Below, piece by piece: positions 9,188 through 50,084 of a stretch of 64,000 nucleotides of DNA; position 1 is the stretch's first letter, and the number at the start of each line of letters is the position of its first letter. The DNA is from Candidatus Rokuibacteriota bacterium. Its GTDB lineage: Bacteria; Methylomirabilota; Methylomirabilia; Rokubacteriales; CSP1-6. The stretch covers positions 3,734 to 67,733 of the forward strand of contig JBBDXN010000145.1 in assembly GCA_040902305.1 (NCBI GenBank). The letters are read 5' to 3'. The translations under genes and the position numbers were made by a program. The notes below the pieces were generated by a model that searched no databases, was not told the origin of the DNA, and saw nothing but the letters and a program-made list of their open reading frames with translations.

Positions 9188-11157
9188 TACTTGACCTTGG
9201 CGCCCGACGGCACGTCCTTGTCGACCGTGAGCAGCGACACCGTGCCGTCGTGCTCGGCGGCGAGCACCATCCCGTTCGATTCCACGCCCATCAAGGTGGC
9301 GGGCCGCAGATTGGCGACGATGACCACCTTCCGGCCGACCATGTCGCCGGGCTGGTAGTGCTCGGCCACCCCCGCCACCAGTGTGCGCGTCTCCTCCCCC
9401 ACCCGGATCGTGAGCTTGAGCAGCTTCCTGGATTTCGCGACTGCTTCGGCGGCCAGCACCTCCGCCACCCGCAGCTCCACCTTCTGGAAGTCGGCGATCG
9501 GGATCTTGCCGGCGGCCCCCTCACCCTGCCCTCTCCCCCGGGGGGGGAGGGTGGTCGGAGACTTCCCCTCTCCCCTCGTCTCTCTCTCCTTCGAGGCGCT
9601 CGACTCCCTCTTCCCTTTGGGGAGAGGGCCGGGGTGAGGGGCCTTCGTGTCGATCCGCGGAAACAGCCCGGAGATCTTGCTCACCCGCGGCACCGACGTG
9701 AGCCGTCCCACGACGGCGCCCTCGAGCGTGGGCGCCGCGCTCTGTCCAATCGCCTCCCGGATCTTCCGCGCCGCATCCGGCAGGAAGGGATCGAGCACGA
9801 TGCCCAGGAAGCCAAGCGAGTCTGCCAGTGTGCACAGCACCCGCTCGAGGCGCGGCCGCTTGCCGGGGTCCTTGGCGAGCGCCCACGGCGCGCTCGCGTC
9901 CACGTAGCGATTGACGCTGCCGATGAAGGACCAGATGCCGGCCAGCGCCTTCTGGAATGCGAACTCCGGCATGGCCTGCTCGACCGCGGCGCGCGCCGCG
10001 ACCGCGGCGGCCGCGATCTCGCGGTCCGCGGGCTCGGCCGGCGCGGTCACCTGCGCGACGGGGCCGGACGCGGCGATCAAGGTGGTGGCCCGGCTCGCGA
10101 GATTGCCGAGGTCGTTGGCCAGATCGGCGTTGAGCCGATCCACCAGCGCCTCCTCGCTGAAGCTGGCGTCGAGCCCGAAGCTCATCTCGCGGAGGAGAAA
10201 GTAGCGGAAGGCGTCGTGGCCGTACTTGTCGGTGAGCTGCAAGGCCTCCACCACGTTGCCGATGGACTTGGACATCTTGCTGCCGCCGAGGGACCAGTAG
10301 CCGTGGACGTGGAGCCCCTGGTAGAGCGGGATGCCCGCCGCCTTCAGCATGGTCGGCCAGTAGACCCCGTGCGGCTTCAGGATGTCCTTGGCGATCAGGT
10401 GCTCGACGTGCTCCCAGAGCCCGCGCGTCTTCTCGCCGCCGTCCGTCACCGCCGAGTAGTAGTTGAGCAGCGCGTCGAACCAGACGTAGGTCACGTACTT
10501 GTCGTCGAAGGGCAGCGGGATGCCCCACTCGAGGCGCGAGGTGGGCCGGCTGATCGACAGGTCTTGCAGGGGCTCGCGGAGGAAGCCCAGCACCTCGTTG
10601 CGGTACCGGTCCGGCTGGATGAACGCCGGGTGGTCCTCGAGGTGCTTGATCAGCCAGTCCTGGTACTTCGACATCTTGAAGAAGTAGTTCTTCTCCTTGA
10701 TGAAGGTGAGCGCGATCTGGTGATCGGGACACTTGCCGTCCACGATCTCCTTCTCGGTGTAGAAGCGCTCGCAGCCGTAGCAGTACCAGCCCCCGTACTC
10801 GCCGAAGTAGATCTCGCCCGCGTCGTACAGGCGCTGCAGGATGCCCTGCACCACCGCCTTGTGCCGCGGCTCGGTGGTGCGGATGAAGTCGTCGTTGGTG
10901 ATGCCCAGCCGTTGCCACGTCTCCCGGAAGATCGCCGCGATCTCGTCCGCGTAGGCCTGGGGGGACTTCCCGGCCTGGGCCGCCACCTGGGCGATCCGCT
11001 CCCCGTGCTCGTCGGTGCCGGTGAGGAAGTAGACGCGGTCGCCGGCCAGCCGGTGGTAGCGGCACATCGCGTCGGCCATGATGGTGGTGCACGCGTGCCC
11101 GAGGTGCGGGCGCGCGTTGACGTAGTAGATCGGGGTCGTGAGGTAGAAGGTGCTCAT
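9187..11157 (-). CDS. metG: methionine--tRNA ligase with C-terminal Trbp111/EMAP-like tRNA-binding domain
   Basis: ATG 11157 in track ORF 9187..11790: MSTFYLTTPIYYVNARPHLGH (HIGH), ...GSKMSKSIGN (KMSKS), C-terminal ...ADFQKVELRVAEVLAAE...VVIVANLRPATLMGVESNGMVLAA. Confidence 0.95.
   Translation of the reverse strand: MSTFYLTTPIYYVNARPHLGHACTTIMADAMCRYHRLAGDRVYFLTGTDEHGERIAQVAAQAGKSPQAYADEIAAIFRETWQRLGITNDDFIRTTEPRHKAVVQGILQRLYDAGEIYFGEYGGWYCYGCERFYTEKEIVDGKCPDHQIALTFIKEKNYFFKMSKYQDWLIKHLEDHPAFIQPDRYRNEVLGFLREPLQDLSISRPTSRLEWGIPLPFDDKYVTYVWFDALLNYYSAVTDGGEKTRGLWEHVEHLIAKDILKPHGVYWPTMLKAAGIPLYQGLHVHGYWSLGGSKMSKSIGNVVEALQLTDKYGHDAFRYFLLREMSFGLDASFSEEALVDRLNADLANDLGNLASRATTLIAASGPVAQVTAPAEPADREIAAAAVAARAAVEQAMPEFAFQKALAGIWSFIGSVNRYVDASAPWALAKDPGKRPRLERVLCTLADSLGFLGIVLDPFLPDAARKIREAIGQSAAPTLEGAVVGRLTSVPRVSKISGLFPRIDTKAPHPGPLPKGKRESSASKERETRGEGKSPTTLPPRGRGQGEGAAGKIPIADFQKVELRVAEVLAAEAVAKSRKLLKLTIRVGEETRTLVAGVAEHYQPGDMVGRKVVIVANLRPATLMGVESNGMVLAAEHDGTVSLLTVDKDVPSGAKVK
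9516..9641. repeat. 126-bp palindromic repeat element embedded in-frame in the metG linker
   Basis: Terminal inverted repeats CCCCTCACCCTGCCCTCTCCCC (9516-9538) and GGGGAGAGGGCCGGGGTGAGGGG (9619-9641). The same 22-mer occurs at 56882 and 61318, with a variant at 16740. Confidence 0.75.
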
Positions 11158-14284: not shown

Positions 14285-14670
14285 CCCGCGGTCCGATACA
14301 GCCCGAGCGCCTCCGGCTGATGAATGCCGGTCTCGAGGCGCAGGTAGCCGAGTCGCGCCTGCCGCGCCTCCTCCTCGATCCGGTCGAGGAGGAGGCGGCC
14401 GAGCTTGAGCCCCCGGGCCTCCGGGCGCACGAACATCCGCTTCAGCTCGCCGTACCCCGCCGCGTCGATCCGGAGCGCGGCGCAGCCCAGCGCAACCCCG
14501 TTCCGGCGCGCCACGAAGAACCGGACGTCGGGCGCGGAGAGCGCCTCCACGTCCAGGAAGTGGTTGCTCTCGGCCGGATAGAGCGCGCTCTGGTAGGCGT
14601 CGAGCGCCTCGAGCAGGCGCTCCACGTCGGCCTGGCGCGGCGACTCGATCTCGAGCGTGATCGGGCTCAT
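14212..14670 (-). CDS. GNAT-family N-acetyltransferase
   Basis: ATG 14670 (ATGA overlap with the upstream stop) in track ORF 14212..14796: ...FFVARRNGVALGCAALR...ELKRMFVRPEARGLKLGRLLLDRIEEEAR (acetyl-CoA motif A). Confidence 0.85.
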   Translation of the reverse strand: MSPITLEIESPRQADVERLLEALDAYQSALYPAESNHFLDVEALSAPDVRFFVARRNGVALGCAALRIDAAGYGELKRMFVRPEARGLKLGRLLLDRIEEEARQARLGYLRLETGIHQPEALGLYRTAGYAERDAFGEYEPDPLSVFMEKIL

Positions 14671-15503
14671 CCCCGGAGCCGCCGCTGCGCGCGCCGCGCC
14701 ACCGCCCAGTAGCGGAGCGCCGGCGGCACGAGCGGCAGGCCGCCCCTCGCCGCGGTGGCCATGATGCGCAGCAGGCGCTCGCGCCGACCGTCCCACCGCA
14801 GACCATAGGCGGCGCGAATCGCGGGCGGCAAGAGCCCGACCGCCGGCAGCGCGGCCAGCCAGACCGCGGGGCCGACCCCGCGGGGGACGGGGGGCGCGAT
14901 GATGTCGCGCGAGAGGCGCCGGGCCGTGTCGGTGACCTCGATCGCCCCGGAGGCCAGCATCGCGGCCAGGTAGTCGCGGAGCTCGGTTTCCGTCCGGGGC
15001 AGCCGTCCCGGCGGGATCCCCAGCGCGCGCTCGATGCCACTCGCCTCGGCGCAGTACCGATCGGCCTCCGCCGGCGTCACCGGCCGCACGAAGAGGCGGT
15101 AGGTCAGCAGGAACGACTCGATCAGGGTGGCGTGCACCCAGGTGAGCAGCTCCGGGTCGTGGGCGCTGTAGGAGGCGCCGGCGGCCGCGCCGCCCGCGGG
15201 CTCATCGAGCCGCCCGTGGACGCGGTCGTGGATGGCATTGATCCGCGCGACGGCGCTCGCCGATGCCTCCTCGGATTCGAAGGTCAGCGCGAGCATGGTG
15301 TGGAGCGTCCGGCGCAGGCGCCGCAGGCGCCCCCACGGCTCGGTGGCGAACCCGCTGTGCTCGGCCACCCCGCGCGCCACCTTCGGATGGGCGAGCTGGA
15401 GCAGGATGGCCCGGCCCCAGCCGGCCAGGAGGACTCGCTCCCGATGTATCCTCCAGGCCATGCCGTCGGCGACGAAGGGCTCGGCTGCCAGCCGGGCGCG
15501 CAT
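14667..15503 (-). CDS. DUF2236 / MpaB-family oxygenase-like protein
   Basis: ATG 15503 in track ORF 14667..16157: ...MAWRIHRERVLLAGWGRAILLQLAHPKVARGV...INAIHDRVHG... Confidence 0.75.
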   Translation of the reverse strand: MRARLAAEPFVADGMAWRIHRERVLLAGWGRAILLQLAHPKVARGVAEHSGFATEPWGRLRRLRRTLHTMLALTFESEEASASAVARINAIHDRVHGRLDEPAGGAAAGASYSAHDPELLTWVHATLIESFLLTYRLFVRPVTPAEADRYCAEASGIERALGIPPGRLPRTETELRDYLAAMLASGAIEVTDTARRLSRDIIAPPVPRGVGPAVWLAALPAVGLLPPAIRAAYGLRWDGRRERLLRIMATAARGGLPLVPPALRYWAVARRAQRRLRG

Positions 15504-15590
15504 GGGGACATTATGCGCGCGGCCCGGAAACTTCGGGAGCCCGTCGACCGTTGTGTGGGCGTCACCCCTCATTCTCGAAAGGAGAGCGCC

Positions 15591-16151
15591 ATGCGTCGAG
15601 CCACCCCGCTCCTGGTCGCAGCCCTGCTGCTGACCGGCCTGATCGCTTCCGGCCTGCCGTGGGCCGGGCCGGTCGCCGCCCTCGAAGTCGGCCAGAAAGC
15701 GCCCGACTTCACCCTTCCCGGCCCGGGCGGCAAGCCGGTGAAGTTGTCCGACCTGACCCCCAAGGGCCCCGTCGTCGTCTTCACCTTCATCCAGGCGTTC
15801 ACGAATACCTGAACCAAGGAGCTCCTCGGCTTCGAGGAGAGCCTGCCCAAGTTCCAGGCCGCCGGCGCCCAGGTCGTCGGCGTGAGCGCCGACCATGCGG
15901 CGACGCTGGACGCCTTCACCAAGCAGTTCAAGATCAGCTACCCCCTGCTGTCCGATTTCCGGCGCACGATGCTGCCCGGGTACGACGCGCTGGTCACCGA
16001 CGAGAAGAGCCCGATCTTCCGCTACGCCAAGCGCGCCTACTACGTCATCGACAAGACCGGCGTGGTCCGGTACATGAAGATCCAGGACAATGCCCTCGAC
16101 CTGCTGGATCCCGCCGACGTGCTGAAGGCCCTCAAGGAGTCGGGCGCGTGA
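15591..16151 (+). CDS. exported peroxiredoxin (AhpC/TSA, BCP-like) with predicted selenocysteine at codon 74 (TGA 15810-15812 read through)
   Basis: ATG 15591 after AAAGGAGAG. Track ORFs 15132..15812 and 15882..16151 share a frame. The joined product reads ...FTFIQAFTNT-U-TKELLGFEESLPKFQAAGAQVVGVSADH...ISYPLLSDF, with the TGA at the peroxidatic Cys position. Signal peptide MRRATPLLVAALLLTGLIASG. Confidence 0.8.
15821..15842 (+). promoter_or_regulatory. SECIS-like hairpin downstream of UGA 15810
   Basis: GCUCCUCG-GCUU-CGAGGAG(A)GC, a 7-bp core stem. The apical loop starts with G, 17 nt after the UGA. Confidence 0.5.
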
Positions 16152-16705
16152 GCGCATCCCGGCTGGCCGCAGCCGGGGTGATCACGGCGGCGCTCTGGGC
16201 CGGGGTCACGGCGGCGCAGCCCGCCGCCGCGCCCCCGGCCTGGGAAAAGCTGGGCGTGCAGGCCTACGAATCGCCCAAGCCCGCGCCCGCCTTCGCGCTG
16301 CCCGCGCTCGACGGCCGCACCGTGCGGCTGGAGGACCAGAAGGGCAAGGCCCTGCTGCTGTTCTTCTGGGCCACCTGGTGAACGACCTGCCGGGAGGAGT
16401 TGCCTTCCGTCAACCGGCTGTACGAGGAGTTCAAGGGACAGGGGCTCCAGGTGCTGCTGATCAGCTTCCGCGAGAGCAGGGAGGTCGTGCAGCGCGCGGT
16501 GACCGCGCGCGGCTATACCGCGCCCGTGCTGCTCGACACCTCCGGCGATCTCACCGGCCGGGTCTACGGCGTCTTCGGGCCGCCCACCGCGTATCTGGTG
16601 GACCGCGAGGGGCGCCTGATCGGCCGGATGATCGGCGGCCGGGAGTGGAGCGGCGCCGCCGCGCGCGATCTCATCCGCGACTTCGTCGCGCCCCGCCCGC
16701 GATGA
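16148..16705 (+). CDS. exported TlpA/ResA-like thioredoxin-fold protein with predicted selenocysteine (U-T-T-C motif; TGA 16379-16381 read through)
   Basis: GTG 16148 (GTGA overlap with the peroxiredoxin stop). The tail of track ORF 15263..16381 and ORF 16400..16705 share a frame. The joined product reads ...KGKALLLFFWATW-U-TTCREELPSVNRLYEEF...GPPTAYLVDREGRLIG. Confidence 0.8.
16391..16409 (+). promoter_or_regulatory. SECIS-like hairpin downstream of UGA 16379
   Basis: C-GGGAGG-AGUUG-CCUUCC-G (one G-U pair). The apical loop begins 17 nt after the UGA, with G at loop position 2. Confidence 0.45.
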
Positions 16706-16739
16706 CGCGTCGGTCCTAGCAGGTTCCAGCCGGGCGCTA

Positions 16740-16792
16740 CCCTCACCCCGACCCACTCCCTCGCCGAGGGAGAGGGGGTCAGGGTGAGGGGG
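16740..16792. repeat. palindromic repeat (variant of the CCCTCACCC...CCCTCTCCC family) in a convergent intergenic region
   Basis: CCCTCACCCCGACCCACTCCCTC-GCCG-AGGGAGAGGGGGTCAGGGTGAGGGGG, between stops 16705 (+) and 16819 (-). Could act as a bidirectional terminator. Confidence 0.7.
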
Positions 16793-16818
16793 CGGGCCGG
16801 ACGCGGGACACGCATTCG

Positions 16819-17400
16819 TCAGGGCCCGGCGGCCAGCGGGGGTGGGCCCGCCTGGTCCCGGGCGTGGCCCGCCATCGCCACGAGTGCGATCACCAGATCG
16901 TTGATCTGCGCGCGGGCGGCCGGATCGGCGAGCTTGCCGTCCTGGAAGTGGCCGGACTCGAGGTACACGCTGGTCGGCACCACCAGCGCCCCGAACCAGG
17001 CCAGCACCGCGCGGAGCTGCCAGTCCACGCCCAGGTAGTGATGAAGCGTGGCGCCCATCGCCACGATGCCCACCGGCTTGGCGCGCAGCGCCTCCAGCGG
17101 CGTGAGATCGAGCAGGTTCTTGAGCGCGCCGGTGAACGAGGCGCGATAGACGGGGCTCGCGAGCAGGACCAGGTCGGCCTCGGCGATCGCGCCGACGACG
17201 CGCGCGGTGTCGTCGGGGTAGCGATCGAGCGGGCGCCCGTCCGCGAAGGAGACCCGATGCTCGCCCAGGCTCAGCACGGTGGCGGAAATGTTCCCCCGAT
17301 CGCCAACGTGGTCGGCCGCGCGCTCCGCCGCGAAGCGCACCGCTGCGTCGAGACGCCCCGGGGGCGTCACCGCGCCCACGACGGCCAGGAGCCGCGTCAC
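16819..17400 (-). CDS. NADPH-dependent FMN reductase (SsuE/MsuE-like)
   Basis: GTG 17400 (GTGA overlap) in track ORF 16819..18408: VTRLLAVVGAVTPPGRL...DLVLLASPVYRASFTGALKNLLD... Confidence 0.75.
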   Translation of the reverse strand: MTRLLAVVGAVTPPGRLDAAVRFAAERAADHVGDRGNISATVLSLGEHRVSFADGRPLDRYPDDTARVVGAIAEADLVLLASPVYRASFTGALKNLLDLTPLEALRAKPVGIVAMGATLHHYLGVDWQLRAVLAWFGALVVPTSVYLESGHFQDGKLADPAARAQINDLVIALVAMAGHARDQAGPPPLAAGP

Positions 17401-46053: not shown

Positions 46054-48288
46054 ATGCGCTCGCCGTCCGCCGCTGACATCCGGCACGACCTGGTCCTGGT
46101 GGGCGGCGGTCACACCCACATCCAGGTGCTCAAGCGGTGGGCCATGGGCCCCGTGCCGGGGGCGCGCCTGACCCTCGTCGTGGACCGGCCGATCGCGGTG
46201 TACTCCGGCATGGTGCCGGGCTTCGTGGCCGGCCAGTACTCCCGGGAAGACCTCGAGATCGACGTGCGGCCCCTCGCGCTCCGCGCGGGGGCGCGCTGCA
46301 TCGTGGCCGCCGCCTCCGGGCTCGACACGGCCGCGCGGCGCCTCGCGCTCCGTGGCCGCCCGCCGATCGCCTACGACACGGTCTCCTTCGACGTGGGCTC
46401 CACGGTGGCCGGGCTCGAAGTGCCCGGCGTCCGCGAGCACGCGCTCCCCACCCGCCCCATCGGCGATTTCGTCCGTCGCGTGGACGAGGTGCCGGCCACG
46501 GCGCGGGGTCGCGACCTCTTTCGGGTCGTCGTGGTCGGCGCGGGCGCCGGAGGCGTCGAGGTCGCCTTCGCCCTCGCCGCGCGACTGGGCCGCGAGCGTG
46601 CCGGCCGCGTCGAGGTGCTGCTCCTCGAGTCCGGTCCGCGGGTGCTGCCCGGCTACGCGGCGAGCGCGGCCGGGCGCGTCGAGGCCGCCGCGGCGGCGCG
46701 GGGGATCGCGATCCGCGTGGGCGCGCGCGTCGCCCAGGTCGAGGGCGATGCGGTGCGCCTGGAAGGCGGCGAGCGGCTGCCCGCCGACGGGGTGGTCTGG
46801 GTGGCCGGCGCCGCCGCGCTCCCGATCTTCGACGGCTCCGGGCTCGAGACGGACGAGGCCGGCTTCGCGCGGATCCGCCCCACGCTCCACTGCGTGGGGC
46901 ACGACGACACGAGAACGGTGGGCGACTGCGCGGCGTGGACCGCGGGCCCGGGCCTGGCCAAGGCCGGCGTGTACGCGGTCCGCCAGGGCCCGGTGCTCGC
47001 GCACAACCTGATCGCGCGCCTCCGCGGCCGGCGGCTCCGCGCCTACCGCCCGCAGCGCGACTTCCTCTCGCTCCTGAACCTGGGCGACGGCCACGCGATC
47101 GGAACCAAGTGGGGCGTCTCGGTCCAGGGCCGTCGCGTGTTCGCGCTCAAGAACTGGATCGACCGCCGCTTCGTGCGCCGCTTCCAGGTGCTCGATCAGG
47201 ACGGCGCGGTCACGCCCGACTTCGCGGCCGCGCCCATGCCCGGCGGGGACATGCTCTGCGGCGGCTGCGCGGCCAAGGTGGGCGAGTCCTCGCTCACCCG
47301 CGCGCTCGAGCGGCTCGGCGTCCCGAGCTGCCCCGCCGTCGTCCTGGGCCTGGCCCAGCCCGACGACGCGGCCGCGGTGGAGAGCGAGCGCGGCGAGATC
47401 GTCGCCGCCACCGTCGACTCCTTCCGCGCCTTCGCCGACGATCCCTACCTGGTCGGCCGCGTCGCGGCGGTGAACGCGGTCAGCGATCTCTGGGCCAAGG
47501 GCGTGGCGCCGCGGTTCGCGCTGGCCCAGGTGAGCGTGCCGGACACCGAGCCCGCGCGGGCGGAGGAGACGCTCTACCAGGTGATGGCGGGCGCCCGCGC
47601 GGCGCTGGACGCCGACGGCGTCACCCTCGTGGGCGGCCACACCACGACGGGGCCGGAGCTGGTGGTGGGCTTCGCGGTCTGGGGCTTCGCGGCCTCGGCG
47701 GATGCGCTGATCCGCATCGGGGGCGTCGCGCCGGGGGATCAGCTCATCCTGACCAAGCCGCTCGGCACCGGTGTGATCCTCCAGGCCGACATGCGCGGGC
47801 TGGCGCGGGGCGAGTGGGTGGAGGCGGCCGACGCGTCCATGCTCCGCTCCAATGGATCGGCCGCGCGGGCGATGGCCGCGCGGCGGCCGACCGCCGCCAC
47901 CGACGTCACCGGCTTCGGACTGGCCGGGCACCTGGGCGGGATGCTGCGCGCGAGCAAATGCTCCGCGGTGCTCGACCTCGCCGCGCTGCCCGCCCTGCCC
48001 GGCGCGGTGGCCCTGCTGACCCGGGGCGTGCGGAGCACCGCCCACCCCGAGAACGCCCGGGCCCGGCGCGCCATCCTCGTGGAGCCGGAGGCCGGGACGC
48101 ATCCGGCGCTGGATCTGCTCTTCGACCCGCAAACCTCGGGCGGGTTGCTGCTCGGAGTCTCGCGAGATCGGAGCATGGCGATGCTGGCGGCGCTGCGCGA
48201 GGCCGGCGACGAGCGCGCCGCCATCATCGGCGAGGTCACGCCGCCGCGACCCGACGGGGCGCTGATCCGGGTGGTTGCAACCGCCTAG
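46054..48288 (+). CDS. selD: fusion protein: FAD-dependent pyridine nucleotide-disulfide oxidoreductase (NDH-2-like) + selenide, water dikinase SelD
   Basis: ATG 46054 in track ORF 44761..48288; 744 aa. N-terminal part: LVLVGGGHTHIQVL...VVVVGAGAGGVEVAFAL. C-terminal part: ...GDMLCGGCAAKVGES...DDAAVV...VNAVSDLWAKG...LVGGHTT...LILTKPLGTG...ATDVTGFGLAGHL (AIR-synthase-like SelD fold, Cys form). Confidence 0.9.
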   Translation: MRSPSAADIRHDLVLVGGGHTHIQVLKRWAMGPVPGARLTLVVDRPIAVYSGMVPGFVAGQYSREDLEIDVRPLALRAGARCIVAAASGLDTAARRLALRGRPPIAYDTVSFDVGSTVAGLEVPGVREHALPTRPIGDFVRRVDEVPATARGRDLFRVVVVGAGAGGVEVAFALAARLGRERAGRVEVLLLESGPRVLPGYAASAAGRVEAAAAARGIAIRVGARVAQVEGDAVRLEGGERLPADGVVWVAGAAALPIFDGSGLETDEAGFARIRPTLHCVGHDDTRTVGDCAAWTAGPGLAKAGVYAVRQGPVLAHNLIARLRGRRLRAYRPQRDFLSLLNLGDGHAIGTKWGVSVQGRRVFALKNWIDRRFVRRFQVLDQDGAVTPDFAAAPMPGGDMLCGGCAAKVGESSLTRALERLGVPSCPAVVLGLAQPDDAAAVESERGEIVAATVDSFRAFADDPYLVGRVAAVNAVSDLWAKGVAPRFALAQVSVPDTEPARAEETLYQVMAGARAALDADGVTLVGGHTTTGPELVVGFAVWGFAASADALIRIGGVAPGDQLILTKPLGTGVILQADMRGLARGEWVEAADASMLRSNGSAARAMAARRPTAATDVTGFGLAGHLGGMLRASKCSAVLDLAALPALPGAVALLTRGVRSTAHPENARARRAILVEPEAGTHPALDLLFDPQTSGGLLLGVSRDRSMAMLAALREAGDERAAIIGEVTPPRPDGALIRVVATA

Positions 48289-48299
48289 ATCAACGGAGG

Positions 48300-48638
48300 C
48301 TACTGGGCCGCGCGCCGGCGGGCGGCCGGGGCGATCTCGACGACCAGCCCGCCGCCCCAGCCGTACTTGGCTTCGGAGAGTCGGCGGATCGTGGACACCA
48401 GATCCCGCTCGCCCCGAGCATCGACCACGCGGGCGCGCCCGCGGAAGGTCCGGCGGCCGACGCGCGCCCGCACCGCGGGCTCCGCGAGGAGATTCTGCAC
48501 CCAGTGCGCCTTCCGGCCGTGCTCGGCGACCAGGTAGTAGCGGCCCTGTTGGCGGGTGAACCAGATCTCGATCCGCCGGGCAAGCCCGCTGCGCCGCCCG
48601 GTCGTGGTCAGATAGAGGTATTTCAGCTCGGGGCTCAC
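48300..48638 (-). CDS. DUF385 / deazaflavin-dependent nitroreductase-family protein
   Basis: Track ORF of 112 aa: ...LYLTTTGRRSGLARRIEIWFTRQQGRYYLVAEHGRKAHWVQNLLAEPAVRARVG... Confidence 0.7.
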   Translation of the reverse strand: MSPELKYLYLTTTGRRSGLARRIEIWFTRQQGRYYLVAEHGRKAHWVQNLLAEPAVRARVGRRTFRGRARVVDARGERDLVSTIRRLSEAKYGWGGGLVVEIAPAARRRAAQ

Positions 48639-48970
48639 GCGCCGAAGGCGCGCTCGAACTGCCGCCTGGCCGCGTCGTCGAGGCCGTTACGGAACTTCTT
48701 GTAGCGCTCGAGGAAGCGCTTGCCCGCCTTGGTGAGGCGCATGCCGCTCGCGGGGCCGCCGCCGGGCACACGCTCCACGAACTTGAAGCCGGCCGCCTCC
48801 TCGAGGTCGCGGAGGTAGCCCCACGCGTTGCGGTAGGACATCTCGAGCTCCTGGGCCGCCTTCTTGAGCGACCCGCGCTCCTCGATCAGCTCGAAGAGCC
48901 GGGCCCGCCCGTCTCCGAACTTGAGCTGGTCACCGAACATCACCCAGACGCGCAGCTTGGGCTTCATCAC
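48635..48970 (-). CDS. ModE-N-terminal-like winged-helix regulator (molybdate-responsive family, no Mop domains)
   Basis: Track ORF of 111 aa: ...GRARLFELIEERGSLKKAAQELEMSYRNAWGYLRDLEEAAGFKFVER...GMRLTKAGKRFL... ATGA overlap with the downstream DUF385 gene. Confidence 0.7.
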   Translation of the reverse strand: MMKPKLRVWVMFGDQLKFGDGRARLFELIEERGSLKKAAQELEMSYRNAWGYLRDLEEAAGFKFVERVPGGGPASGMRLTKAGKRFLERYKKFRNGLDDAARRQFERAFGA

Positions 48971-49577: not shown

Positions 49578-50084
49578 ATGCCGATCAAAGTTGGTGATCG
49601 CGTGCCGGACGGCACGCTCACGGAGTTCATCGAGCAGGAAACCCCGGGCTGCACCGTCGGCCCCAACGCGTTCCAGGTGGCCGACCTGACCAAGGGCAAG
49701 AAGATCGTCGTCTTCGGCCTGCCCGGCGCCTTCACCCCCACCTGCTCGGCCAAGCACGTGCCGGGCTACGTGGCGAACGTCGACAAGCTCAAGGGCAAGG
49801 GCATCGACGAGGTCTGGTGCGTGTCCGTCAACGACGCCTTCGTTATGGGCGCGTGGGCCAAGGACCAGAAGAGTGCCGGCAAGGTCCGCTTGATGGCCGA
49901 CGGCAGCGCCGCGCTCACCAAGGCGATGGGCCTCGAGATGGATCTCACCGCTCGCGGGATGGGGGTGCGCTCCCAGCGCTACTCGATGCTGGTGGACAAC
50001 GGCGTGGTCAAGTCGCTGAACGTGGAGCAGCCCGGCAAGTTCGAGGTGAGCGACGCCGATTCGATGCTGAAACAGATCGGCTAA
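49578..50084 (+). CDS. peroxiredoxin, Prx5 subfamily (Cys form)
   Basis: Track ORF of 168 aa, preceded by GGAGGAG: ...KKIVVFGLPGAFTPTCSAKHVPGY...VWCVSVNDAFVMGAW... Confidence 0.9.
   Translation: MPIKVGDRVPDGTLTEFIEQETPGCTVGPNAFQVADLTKGKKIVVFGLPGAFTPTCSAKHVPGYVANVDKLKGKGIDEVWCVSVNDAFVMGAWAKDQKSAGKVRLMADGSAALTKAMGLEMDLTARGMGVRSQRYSMLVDNGVVKSLNVEQPGKFEVSDADSMLKQIG

Follow-up and report, generated by a model that had tools for sequence, protein, structure and literature searches.

What is encoded by two overlapping genes that each carry an in-frame UGA at the codon for the redox-active nucleophile, and what might their products do together? This question is raised by positions 15591 to 16705 of a stretch of DNA from Candidatus Rokuibacteriota bacterium (GenBank assembly GCA_040902305.1, contig JBBDXN010000145.1, positions 3,734 to 67,733 of the forward strand), which was analysed at its full length of 64,000 nucleotides and is referred to here as the window. 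Our analysis indicates that the locus very probably encodes a conserved, exported and co-translated pair of true selenoproteins: a peroxiredoxin (Prx) with selenocysteine (Sec) in the peroxidatic position and a TlpA-like thioredoxin-fold partner with Sec in the attacking position. We propose, with a probability of roughly 0.6, that the exported Sec-Prx and its TlpA-like reductant constitute a periplasmic peroxide-reduction relay encoded by one operon. A preliminary description of the locus had interpreted the two proteins as a donor/acceptor pair, and the follow-up analysis supports that interpretation as a candidate. The features at the core of the argument are the following.

15591..16151, plus strand: gene 1, predicted exported Sec-peroxiredoxin of the BCP/PrxQ type, a 1-Sec form without resolving Cys (Pfam, structure matches, orthologues)
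15810..15812, plus strand: UGA of gene 1, read as Sec74 in the peroxidatic position (T71-x-x-U74), context FTNT-U-TKE; aligns with the catalytic Cys of BCP structures
16148..16151, plus strand: GTGA start/stop overlap of gene 1 and gene 2 (sequence; orthologous pairs)
16148..16705, plus strand: gene 2, predicted exported TlpA/ResA-like thioredoxin-fold selenoprotein, motif W-U78-T-T-C81 (Pfam, structure matches, orthologues)
16379..16381, plus strand: UGA of gene 2, read as Sec78, the N-terminal (attacking) residue of UxxC, context WATW-U-TTC; aligns with the first CxxC Cys of ResA and 3kcm
16388..16390, plus strand: TGC of gene 2, Cys81, the resolving residue of UxxC; invariant in 66/66 orthologues

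As read from the sequence, gene 1 extends from an ATG at 15591 to a TGA stop at 16149-16151 (186 codons), and gene 2 from a GTG at 16148 to a TGA stop at 16703-16705 (185 codons). Codon 74 is the sole internal in-frame TGA of gene 1, and codon 78 that of gene 2. For comparison we assembled 165 loci by scanning species-representative genomes and metagenomes and by adding five contigs reached through protein look-up; 125 of them carry a close gene 1 homologue, and the counts of pair states given below refer to those. Almost all of the named loci among the 165 belong to Methylomirabilota/Rokubacteria.

Both internal UGAs are shown, by comparison across these relatives, to be decoded as selenocysteine. 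The placement of a UGA at the redox nucleophile of each gene, already recognized in the preliminary description, is borne out, as both codons align with the catalytic Cys of homologues and conservation goes on downstream: amino-acid identity of 58-89% continues through the TGA in 120 gene 1 loci and 73 gene 2 loci (tblastn), and G+C content at third codon positions (GC3) is 0.92-0.94 downstream of each TGA. The Sec74 codon is TGA in 120/125 close gene 1 loci, with TGC or TGT at the equivalent position in the other five (L081, L082 and L086-L088), and the Sec78 codon is TGA in 73 related loci and TGC in three (L083-L085). No other internal in-frame TGA interrupts any of the 31 genes of the window that Pfam confirms, and a scan of the window for further genes with an in-frame TGA found none. 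A reassigned UGA (code 4 or 25), as implied by Joint Genome Institute (JGI) proteins with W or G at the site, was considered and rejected because TGA is the ordinary stop of 20 of the same 31 genes. The window also contains selD, as had been reported for it, in the form of a fusion gene.

46054..48288, plus strand: Ndh-SelD fusion with an N-terminal pyridine nucleotide-disulfide oxidoreductase, 744 residues, CGGC active-site motif (NCBIfam)

With NCBIfam scores of 272.9 bits for selD (TIGR00476, cut-off 125) and 386.6 bits for TIGR03169 (cut-off 310), this protein is a genuine selenophosphate synthetase, an enzyme required for Sec synthesis. Ndh-SelD fusions with CxxC are already known, including from ocean metagenomes (PMC2398784), and Methylomirabilota are reported to be rich in selenoproteins, with up to 63 selenoprotein genes in one metagenome-assembled genome (PMC13188914).

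Bacterial decoding of UGA as Sec is expected to leave a further trace in the mRNA, a selenocysteine insertion sequence (SECIS) hairpin, and one can be drawn downstream of each UGA.

15822..15839, plus strand: candidate SECIS of gene 1, 7-bp stem CUCCUCG/CGAGGAG, loop GCUU (fold z = -2.6 for 15800-15860)
16391..16409, plus strand: SECIS of gene 2, stem CGGGAGG/CCUUCCG, loop AGUUG (fold; 67 distinct sequences)

In both, our folds agree with the earlier observation that the apical loop begins 17 nucleotides (nt) after the UGA, which lies within the approximately 16-37 nt typical of a SECIS, and both loops contain G and U. The gene 2 hairpin is the more uniform: 99.1% of cells are paired across 67 distinct orthologous sequences, compared with 55-68% in slid controls; pairs 15-29 and 17-27 show compensatory changes (GC-to-AU and AU-to-GC), and pair 16-28 occurs as GU, GC and AU. 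Its loop, AGUU(G/A), is near-invariant, with AGGUA as the single exception, and draws on the codons TTG/TTA and CCT, seldom used in a gene with a GC3 of 0.92 in a genome of 71% G+C. For gene 1, the hairpin of the window is kept only in the seven sequences that make up the window clade. The remaining 87 members of the family have a composite, two-part hairpin 19-45 nt after the UGA (alignment columns 22-48), which cannot form in the window sequence; it is 92% paired and carries 50 compensatory cells, against 11 +/- 2.6 after shuffling (0/500 shuffles reach 50). RNAalifold applied to all gene 1 SECIS windows pooled did not recover the window hairpin, and the split set gave two hairpin solutions. 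Two differing hairpins within one orthologous family mean that the SECIS has been remodelled within the family, and the difference looks like SECIS turnover inside a coding region. Rfam scans by gathering threshold and by E-value returned no SECIS or other meaningful RNA family, only chance miRNA-like matches at the palindrome downstream of gene 2. In L087 and L088, in which the Prx itself has Cys, the Sec partner keeps an intact SECIS, and the former SECIS region of the Prx gene folds weakly (-4 to -10 kcal/mol).

What kinds of protein are these? Matches to solved BCP and ResA/TlpA structures are decisive for the predicted folds of both. Gene 1 (with U read as C) matches Pfam AhpC-TSA at 1.9e-30, and its best solved-structure matches are whole-domain alignments to archaeal BCP-type peroxiredoxins (2ywn, 3e-25; 2cx3); together the matches to 2ywn/4g2e, 2cx3 and 3hjp span 3e-25 to 6e-21 and place it in the BCP/PrxQ group. 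Arg148 is invariant in the family. No Cys beyond U74 is present in 109/110 mature Prx domains, so the protein needs a resolving nucleophile from another molecule; most plausibly, that external partner is the adjacent UxxC protein. Gene 2, read in the same way, matches AhpC-TSA at 5.4e-26 as well as Redoxin and Thioredoxin_8, and its solved-structure matches are 3kcm (1.4e-28), ResA and TlpA, with the TlpA/ResA/CcmG family at 1e-16 to 1e-28. Its invariant residues are W74, T76, W77, U78, C81, E84, P86 and the cis-Pro P146; the invariant segments W77-U78-T-T-C81-R-E-E84-L-P86 and G-P-P146-T are those of the TlpA/ResA/CcmG fold, with Sec for the first Cys, and in 66/66 partners there is no Cys beyond U78 and C81. 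Neither protein reaches an NCBIfam equivalog cut-off (PrxQ, PrxU, Prx-SUH, ResA, TlpA and WAxxUGC included). Against the Sec-Prx models, gene 1 scores 27 bits for PrxU (cut-off 270) and 28 bits for Prx-SUH (cut-off 298); gene 2 scores 97.3 bits for ResA (cut-off 170), 76.1 for TlpA (230) and 54.4 for DsbE (123), and because it falls below these cut-offs we class it as TlpA-like rather than as TlpA or ResA.

The compartment in which the pair would work is suggested by the N-termini, which were judged by n-h-c heuristics with the h-region defined by a 12-residue Kyte-Doolittle mean of at least 2.0.

15591..15683, plus strand: predicted Sec-translocon-type signal peptide of gene 1, M1-A31, MRR...PVAA followed by LEVGQ (heuristic)
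16148..16216, plus strand: predicted signal peptide of gene 2, about M1-A23, ...GVTAA followed by QP (heuristic)

Signal peptides of this type are strongly indicated for both products. Among gene 1 orthologues with a callable start, the h-region reaches the threshold in 119/119 and the n-region is net positive in 116/119; AxA is present in 83/117, and AxA, VxA or LxA precedes LEVGQ in 108/117. An ATG lies 28-31 codons upstream of the conserved LEVGQKAPDF in almost every orthologue, and the intervening segment varies freely in sequence while its n-h-c architecture is constant. For gene 2 the same architecture is found in 68/75 orthologues, usually with an AxA-type site ahead of a conserved (A)PDF/PNW...QPYxPPKPAP segment; alternatively, its N-terminus could be an uncleaved anchor. 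The preliminary description had attributed export or anchor signals to both genes and had suggested prediction of signal peptides and lipoboxes as a check. By our heuristics the signals are there and the lipobox is not: both N-termini of the window lack a Cys, and lipoprotein anchoring is rejected on that ground. Tat export was likewise rejected as a general route, since the twin Arg in the MRR of gene 1 is not kept outside the window clade. Genes of the window for OmpA and for a beta-barrel protein of the outer membrane indicate a diderm envelope, so the products should end up in the periplasm.

The comparison of loci shows that the two genes are inherited together. The partner gene directly follows the Sec-Prx gene in 76 of about 105 loci with enough downstream DNA, in agreement with the co-conservation anticipated for the pair. 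The GTGA overlap noted at 16148-16151 is present as described, and a stop/start overlap recurs in 72/75 orthologous pairs (4 nt in 56, 1 nt in 15 and 14 nt in one). Flanking genes vary among the loci, leaving the pair as the only conserved unit; it is inherited as such, with its genes overlapping stop to start. In the species-representative scan, which yielded 40 close loci (L001-L039 and L073), nearly all from Methylomirabilota, Rokubacteria or NC10, the Prx site is TGA in 40/40, and the partner lies directly downstream, always with TGA, in 32 of the 38 loci with enough downstream DNA. A comparison of Sec and Cys states among relatives, proposed in the preliminary description, gave the following distribution over the 125 loci.

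Sec-Prx with Sec partner: 71 loci
Sec-Prx with Cys partner: 3 loci (L083-L085)
Cys-Prx with Sec partner: 2 loci (L087, L088)
Sec-Prx without adjacent partner: 29 loci
Cut by a contig end, or with only a partial partner match: the remaining 20 loci

A Cys/Cys pair was found in none of the 125, including those from a metagenome scan seeded with the Cys-type Prx P0008. Both evaluable Cys-Prx loci retain a Sec partner and all three Cys-partner loci retain a Sec-Prx; in four Cys-Prx loci the contig is cut before the partner motif. Within this clade Sec/Sec predominates and is probably the older of the states. The only Cys-type Prx of the family, with the motif YTKDC, comes from one sample lineage (Ga0073934, contigs L087 and L088). 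The 29 unpartnered copies fall mostly into one paralogous clade, also exported and with the motif IAAFTPTU (L022, L028, L032, L036, L038 and L130-L165; for example L038:4560-4973); in ten loci of this clade the place of the partner is taken by a conserved ORF of about 137 residues, which begins 12-18 nt downstream and whose N-terminus (...LSAAC) resembles that of a lipoprotein. A partnered and an unpartnered Sec-Prx occur together in one metagenome-assembled genome (L013/L022), and L105 and L110 carry a second Sec-Prx copy in tandem.

Signals for expression, read from the sequence or proposed from conservation, are as follows.

15526..15552, plus strand: candidate promoter of the extracytoplasmic function (ECF) sigma type, GGAAAC-N17-CGTT, 65 nt upstream of the gene 1 ATG (conservation)
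15579..15584, plus strand: Shine-Dalgarno (SD) sequence AAGGAG of gene 1, 6 nt before the ATG (sequence)
16134..16139, plus strand: SD sequence AAGGAG of gene 2, 8 nt before the GTG (sequence)

The GTGA overlap is the layout expected for translational coupling. The idea that the two genes share one SD did not hold, as each has an AAGGAG of its own. An SD-like motif precedes the gene 1 start in 102/118 orthologues, and at -18 to -4 of the gene 2 start one is present in 53/75 orthologous pairs (AAGGA in 43/75). The gene 2 SD coincides with Lys-Glu codons near the C-terminus of gene 1, giving this AAGGAG a double role. We infer that a single promoter serves both genes. The candidate for it, which we take to be of the ECF-sigma type from its resemblance to the consensus, sits in the 87-bp divergent intergenic region within blocks conserved in 12 aligned upstream regions of the window clade. 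A relaxed form, GGAA(A)C-N15-19-GTT, is found in 36/106 distinct regions upstream of Sec-Prx genes, in loci with differing neighbours, against a background of about 0.8%, an approximately 40-fold enrichment among sequences that are phylogenetically related. A promoter of this type would suit an extracytoplasmic stress function. A scan of 15350-16950 for the sigma-70 promoter consensus returned nothing.

How would such a relay operate? In the envelope of Caulobacter crescentus, electrons pass from ScsB, for which DsbD can substitute, to TlpA and on to PprX for peroxide reduction (Cho et al. 2012, mBio, PMC3322552). Homology and this precedent together suggest peroxidase and reductant functions for the two Rokubacterial proteins. 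Following transcription, perhaps from the ECF-sigma-type promoter, the stop/start overlap would make the partner's synthesis dependent on ribosomes that have successfully passed Sec74 of gene 1. In the periplasm the Sec74 selenolate would reduce H2O2, an organic hydroperoxide or peroxynitrite and become a selenenic acid (SeOH); the exposed Sec78 of the partner would attack it to give a transient inter-protein Se-Se bond; and Cys81 would resolve the diselenide, freeing the reduced Prx and leaving the partner with a U78-C81 selenenylsulfide. The partner would then be re-reduced by a CcdA/DsbD/ScsB-type membrane transporter, whose gene would lie elsewhere and which would receive its electrons from cytoplasmic thioredoxin. 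Direct electron transfer within the pair is suggested because the Prx lacks a resolving Cys and the genes are coupled in one operon, and the peroxidase step is favored by Thr71, which is in place, and by the invariant Arg148.

Several observations weigh against this model. The universal PxxxTxxC motif of peroxiredoxins is incomplete: the Pro at -7 is missing in every member, its place being held by Ile, Val or Leu with a one-residue gap relative to 2ywn, and the Thr at -3 is kept in at least 80% of sequences, with N, G or S in some. Without that Pro and with a Thr that is not invariant, peroxidase chemistry is not guaranteed. Neither the window nor the neighbourhood of the pair in any of the 165 loci yielded a gene for CcdA, DsbD or ScsB, as judged by neighbour clustering and a heuristic for multiple transmembrane segments and Cys; this search for a linked reductase brought up QueT and ABC permeases alone. 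Judging from seleno-glutaredoxin analogues, reduction of a UxxC selenenylsulfide should be more difficult than that of a disulfide. The 29 Sec-Prx copies without a neighbouring partner show that adjacency is not obligatory. On the side of Sec decoding, ARAGORN found no tRNA in the window, tRNA-Sec included, and neither selA nor selB is among the 31 window ORFs scanned.

These weaknesses leave room for other explanations, the best of which, unlikely as we consider it, holds that the relay is real and that the Prx-fold protein is a selenol oxidoreductase acting on a substrate other than peroxide, for example envelope proteins that have been sulfenylated or otherwise oxidised, methionine sulfoxide, or some metal or metalloid. 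The family-wide loss of the motif Pro, the variable Thr and the failure of both proteins to reach any equivalog cut-off would all fit, as would the existence of non-peroxide clients of the TlpA family, such as cytochrome oxidase maturation. A precedent is Caulobacter PrxL, which is exported and ScsB-dependent and has no detectable peroxidase activity (PMC3322552). Unlike PrxL, however, the gene 1 product retains the T-x-x-U spacing, Arg148 and a CTKE-like BCP context, and it matches BCP structures at 3e-25; moreover, a peroxidatic Sec is what TxxU Prx selenoproteins are known to have (PMC13188914; PMC2398784).

It is also conceivable, and in our estimate quite improbable, that the purpose is reversed: the pair would form a self-contained, peroxide-fuelled periplasmic selenium relay in which the Prx uses peroxide to oxidise its partner and the oxidising equivalents are passed on to envelope proteins or to a sensor or other signalling target, so that no membrane reductase would be required. 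Such an arrangement would resemble PRDX4-PDI in the endoplasmic reticulum and Orp1-Yap1. It would account for the lack of a linked reductase gene in 165 loci, for a self-contained module that moves between genomic contexts, and for a possible promoter of the envelope-stress (ECF) type. Against it, an attacking Sec renders the motif a stronger reductant rather than a stronger oxidant, and members of the TlpA/ResA/CcmG family are reductants held in the reduced state by CcdA/DsbD. The only envelope Prx/TlpA pair studied experimentally works reductively (PMC3322552).

To much the same low degree, we allow that the two proteins exchange no electrons with each other and are served in parallel by one reductant, sharing an operon only for the sake of common regulation by selenium supply or envelope stress. 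DsbD's thioredoxin-like domain is capable of reducing PprX directly without TlpA (PMC3322552), and the paralogous Sec-Prx clade manages without an adjacent partner. Yet overlap in 72/75 pairs and co-inheritance while contexts change are what one typically sees for interacting proteins produced at a fixed ratio, and a Prx that lacks a resolving Cys in 109/110 cases is encoded next to a protein that offers an exposed selenolate. That one or both UGAs are genuine stops, leaving truncated genes, pseudogenes or independent short ORFs, is scarcely credible even though public calls show only C-terminal fragments or split ORFs and selA, selB, tRNA-Sec and any Rfam match are missing from the window, since in more than 100 loci in-frame conservation, at 55-89% identity, runs through a TGA that invariably occupies the catalytic codon, the downstream hairpins covary, Cys codons replace TGA in a few relatives, selD is present, and the N-terminal halves alone would amount to a signal peptide and half a thioredoxin fold.

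The surroundings of the pair add little that is constant across loci. The divergent upstream neighbour (14667-15503, minus strand) is MpaB-like (9.9e-61), as the preliminary description had it, and the convergent neighbour downstream of gene 2 encodes a flavin mononucleotide (FMN) reductase. The gap between gene 2 and the FMN reductase gene (16706-16805) is a very stable GC-rich palindrome (-67.5 kcal/mol, z = -4.6) without a T-tract, whose matches to miRNA models are weak and due to chance; 15-mers related to it recur at 9518, 56883 and 61319. It could act as a bidirectional terminator or belong to the REP-like elements; a consensus scan of 15350-16950 found no intrinsic terminator. A second peroxiredoxin of the Redoxin family is encoded at 49578-50084 (plus strand, 168 residues, Pfam Redoxin 9.7e-39), close to a LysR-type regulator fragment at 48635-48970 (minus strand); it is of the Cys type and appears unrelated to the Sec pair.

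Current annotation conceals the pair almost completely. Public records contain post-UGA fragments of 101-109 residues, named 'redoxin domain-containing protein' or 'TlpA disulfide reductase family protein, partial'; some JGI proteins have Trp or Gly at the UGA through alternative codes, and gene 1 is split into two ORFs in L083-L085. The miscalled proteins of the family in our collection are P0002-P0007, P0010, P0122, P0123, P0014-P0120 and P0125-P0240. As a result of such miscalls, a module that is widespread in Methylomirabilota/Rokubacteria of soil and groundwater is invisible in current annotation. Should the proposed relay be real, it would amount to a selenium counterpart of the one pathway of peroxide reduction that has been characterised in a bacterial envelope: peroxidase and reductant alike would use Sec, and the Sec translocon would export them both. 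The advantage that selenium confers on a thiol-type relay could then be studied in a natural system, as Sec/Sec, Sec/Cys and Cys/Sec variants exist. In the scavenging scheme the obligatory Prx-Se-Se-partner intermediate would be a natural diselenide between two different proteins, and the gene layout hints at a way in which translation of a partner can be made contingent, through stop/start coupling, on successful Sec insertion upstream. The oxidising alternative, if it were true, would give bacteria an equivalent of PRDX4-PDI or Orp1-Yap1 built entirely on selenium, with no need for a dedicated membrane reductase.

How does the pair compare with systems already known? Each half belongs to a recognized selenoprotein family. 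'Prx' (PF00578, TxxU) has long been known as a predicted family (PMC2398784; PMC13188914); gene 1 belongs to the same Pfam family and has Sec at the peroxidatic TxxU, but in contrast to the surveyed family, for which PxxxTxxU is given (PMC13188914), the gene 1 family lacks the Pro at -7 and is exported. 'Prx-like 1', or 'Prx-like thiol:disulfide oxidoreductase' (PF00578, UxxC), is likewise a known survey family (PMC2398784; PMC13188914), and gene 2, which matches PF00578 and Redoxin and carries UxxC, conforms to its definition; in the surveys this family is an orphan of unknown function, whereas gene 2 is tied to a specific partner by a conserved overlap. With ResA, TlpA and CcmG (DsbE), gene 2 shares the fold, the WxxW-CxxC-xxE-x-P context, the cis-Pro and, by prediction, a signal or anchor at the N-terminus; it differs from them in having Sec for the attacking Cys and in the absence of nearby genes for cytochrome c or Cu-centre maturation. 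Known multi-selenoprotein operons include grd, prd, frh-hdr, SAO and Tso (PMC2398784; PMC13188914), and the present locus resembles them in having two selenoprotein genes in one operon, presumably for one pathway. An exported Prx and TlpA-like Sec/Sec bicistron is absent from the survey lists and from full-text searches of the papers that were available, and may have been described elsewhere.

Closest to the proposed function is the Caulobacter TlpA-PprX couple. Both systems combine a signal-bearing BCP/PrxQ peroxiredoxin with an exported TlpA-family donor (the exports being predicted here), and the same flow of electrons is expected. In Caulobacter neither nucleophile is Sec, while here both are, and PprX has two Cys whereas the Rokubacterial Prx has neither a resolving Cys nor the canonical Pro. 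An ScsB, DsbD or CcdA gene is not linked to the pair here, as a further difference. The way in which the partners came to light differs as well: Caulobacter TlpA emerged from a genome-wide search for exported thioredoxin-like proteins, whereas here an overlapping bicistron joins the two. From these likenesses and differences we regard the pair as a candidate selenium version of the TlpA-PprX type of envelope relay, assembled from two known selenoprotein families.

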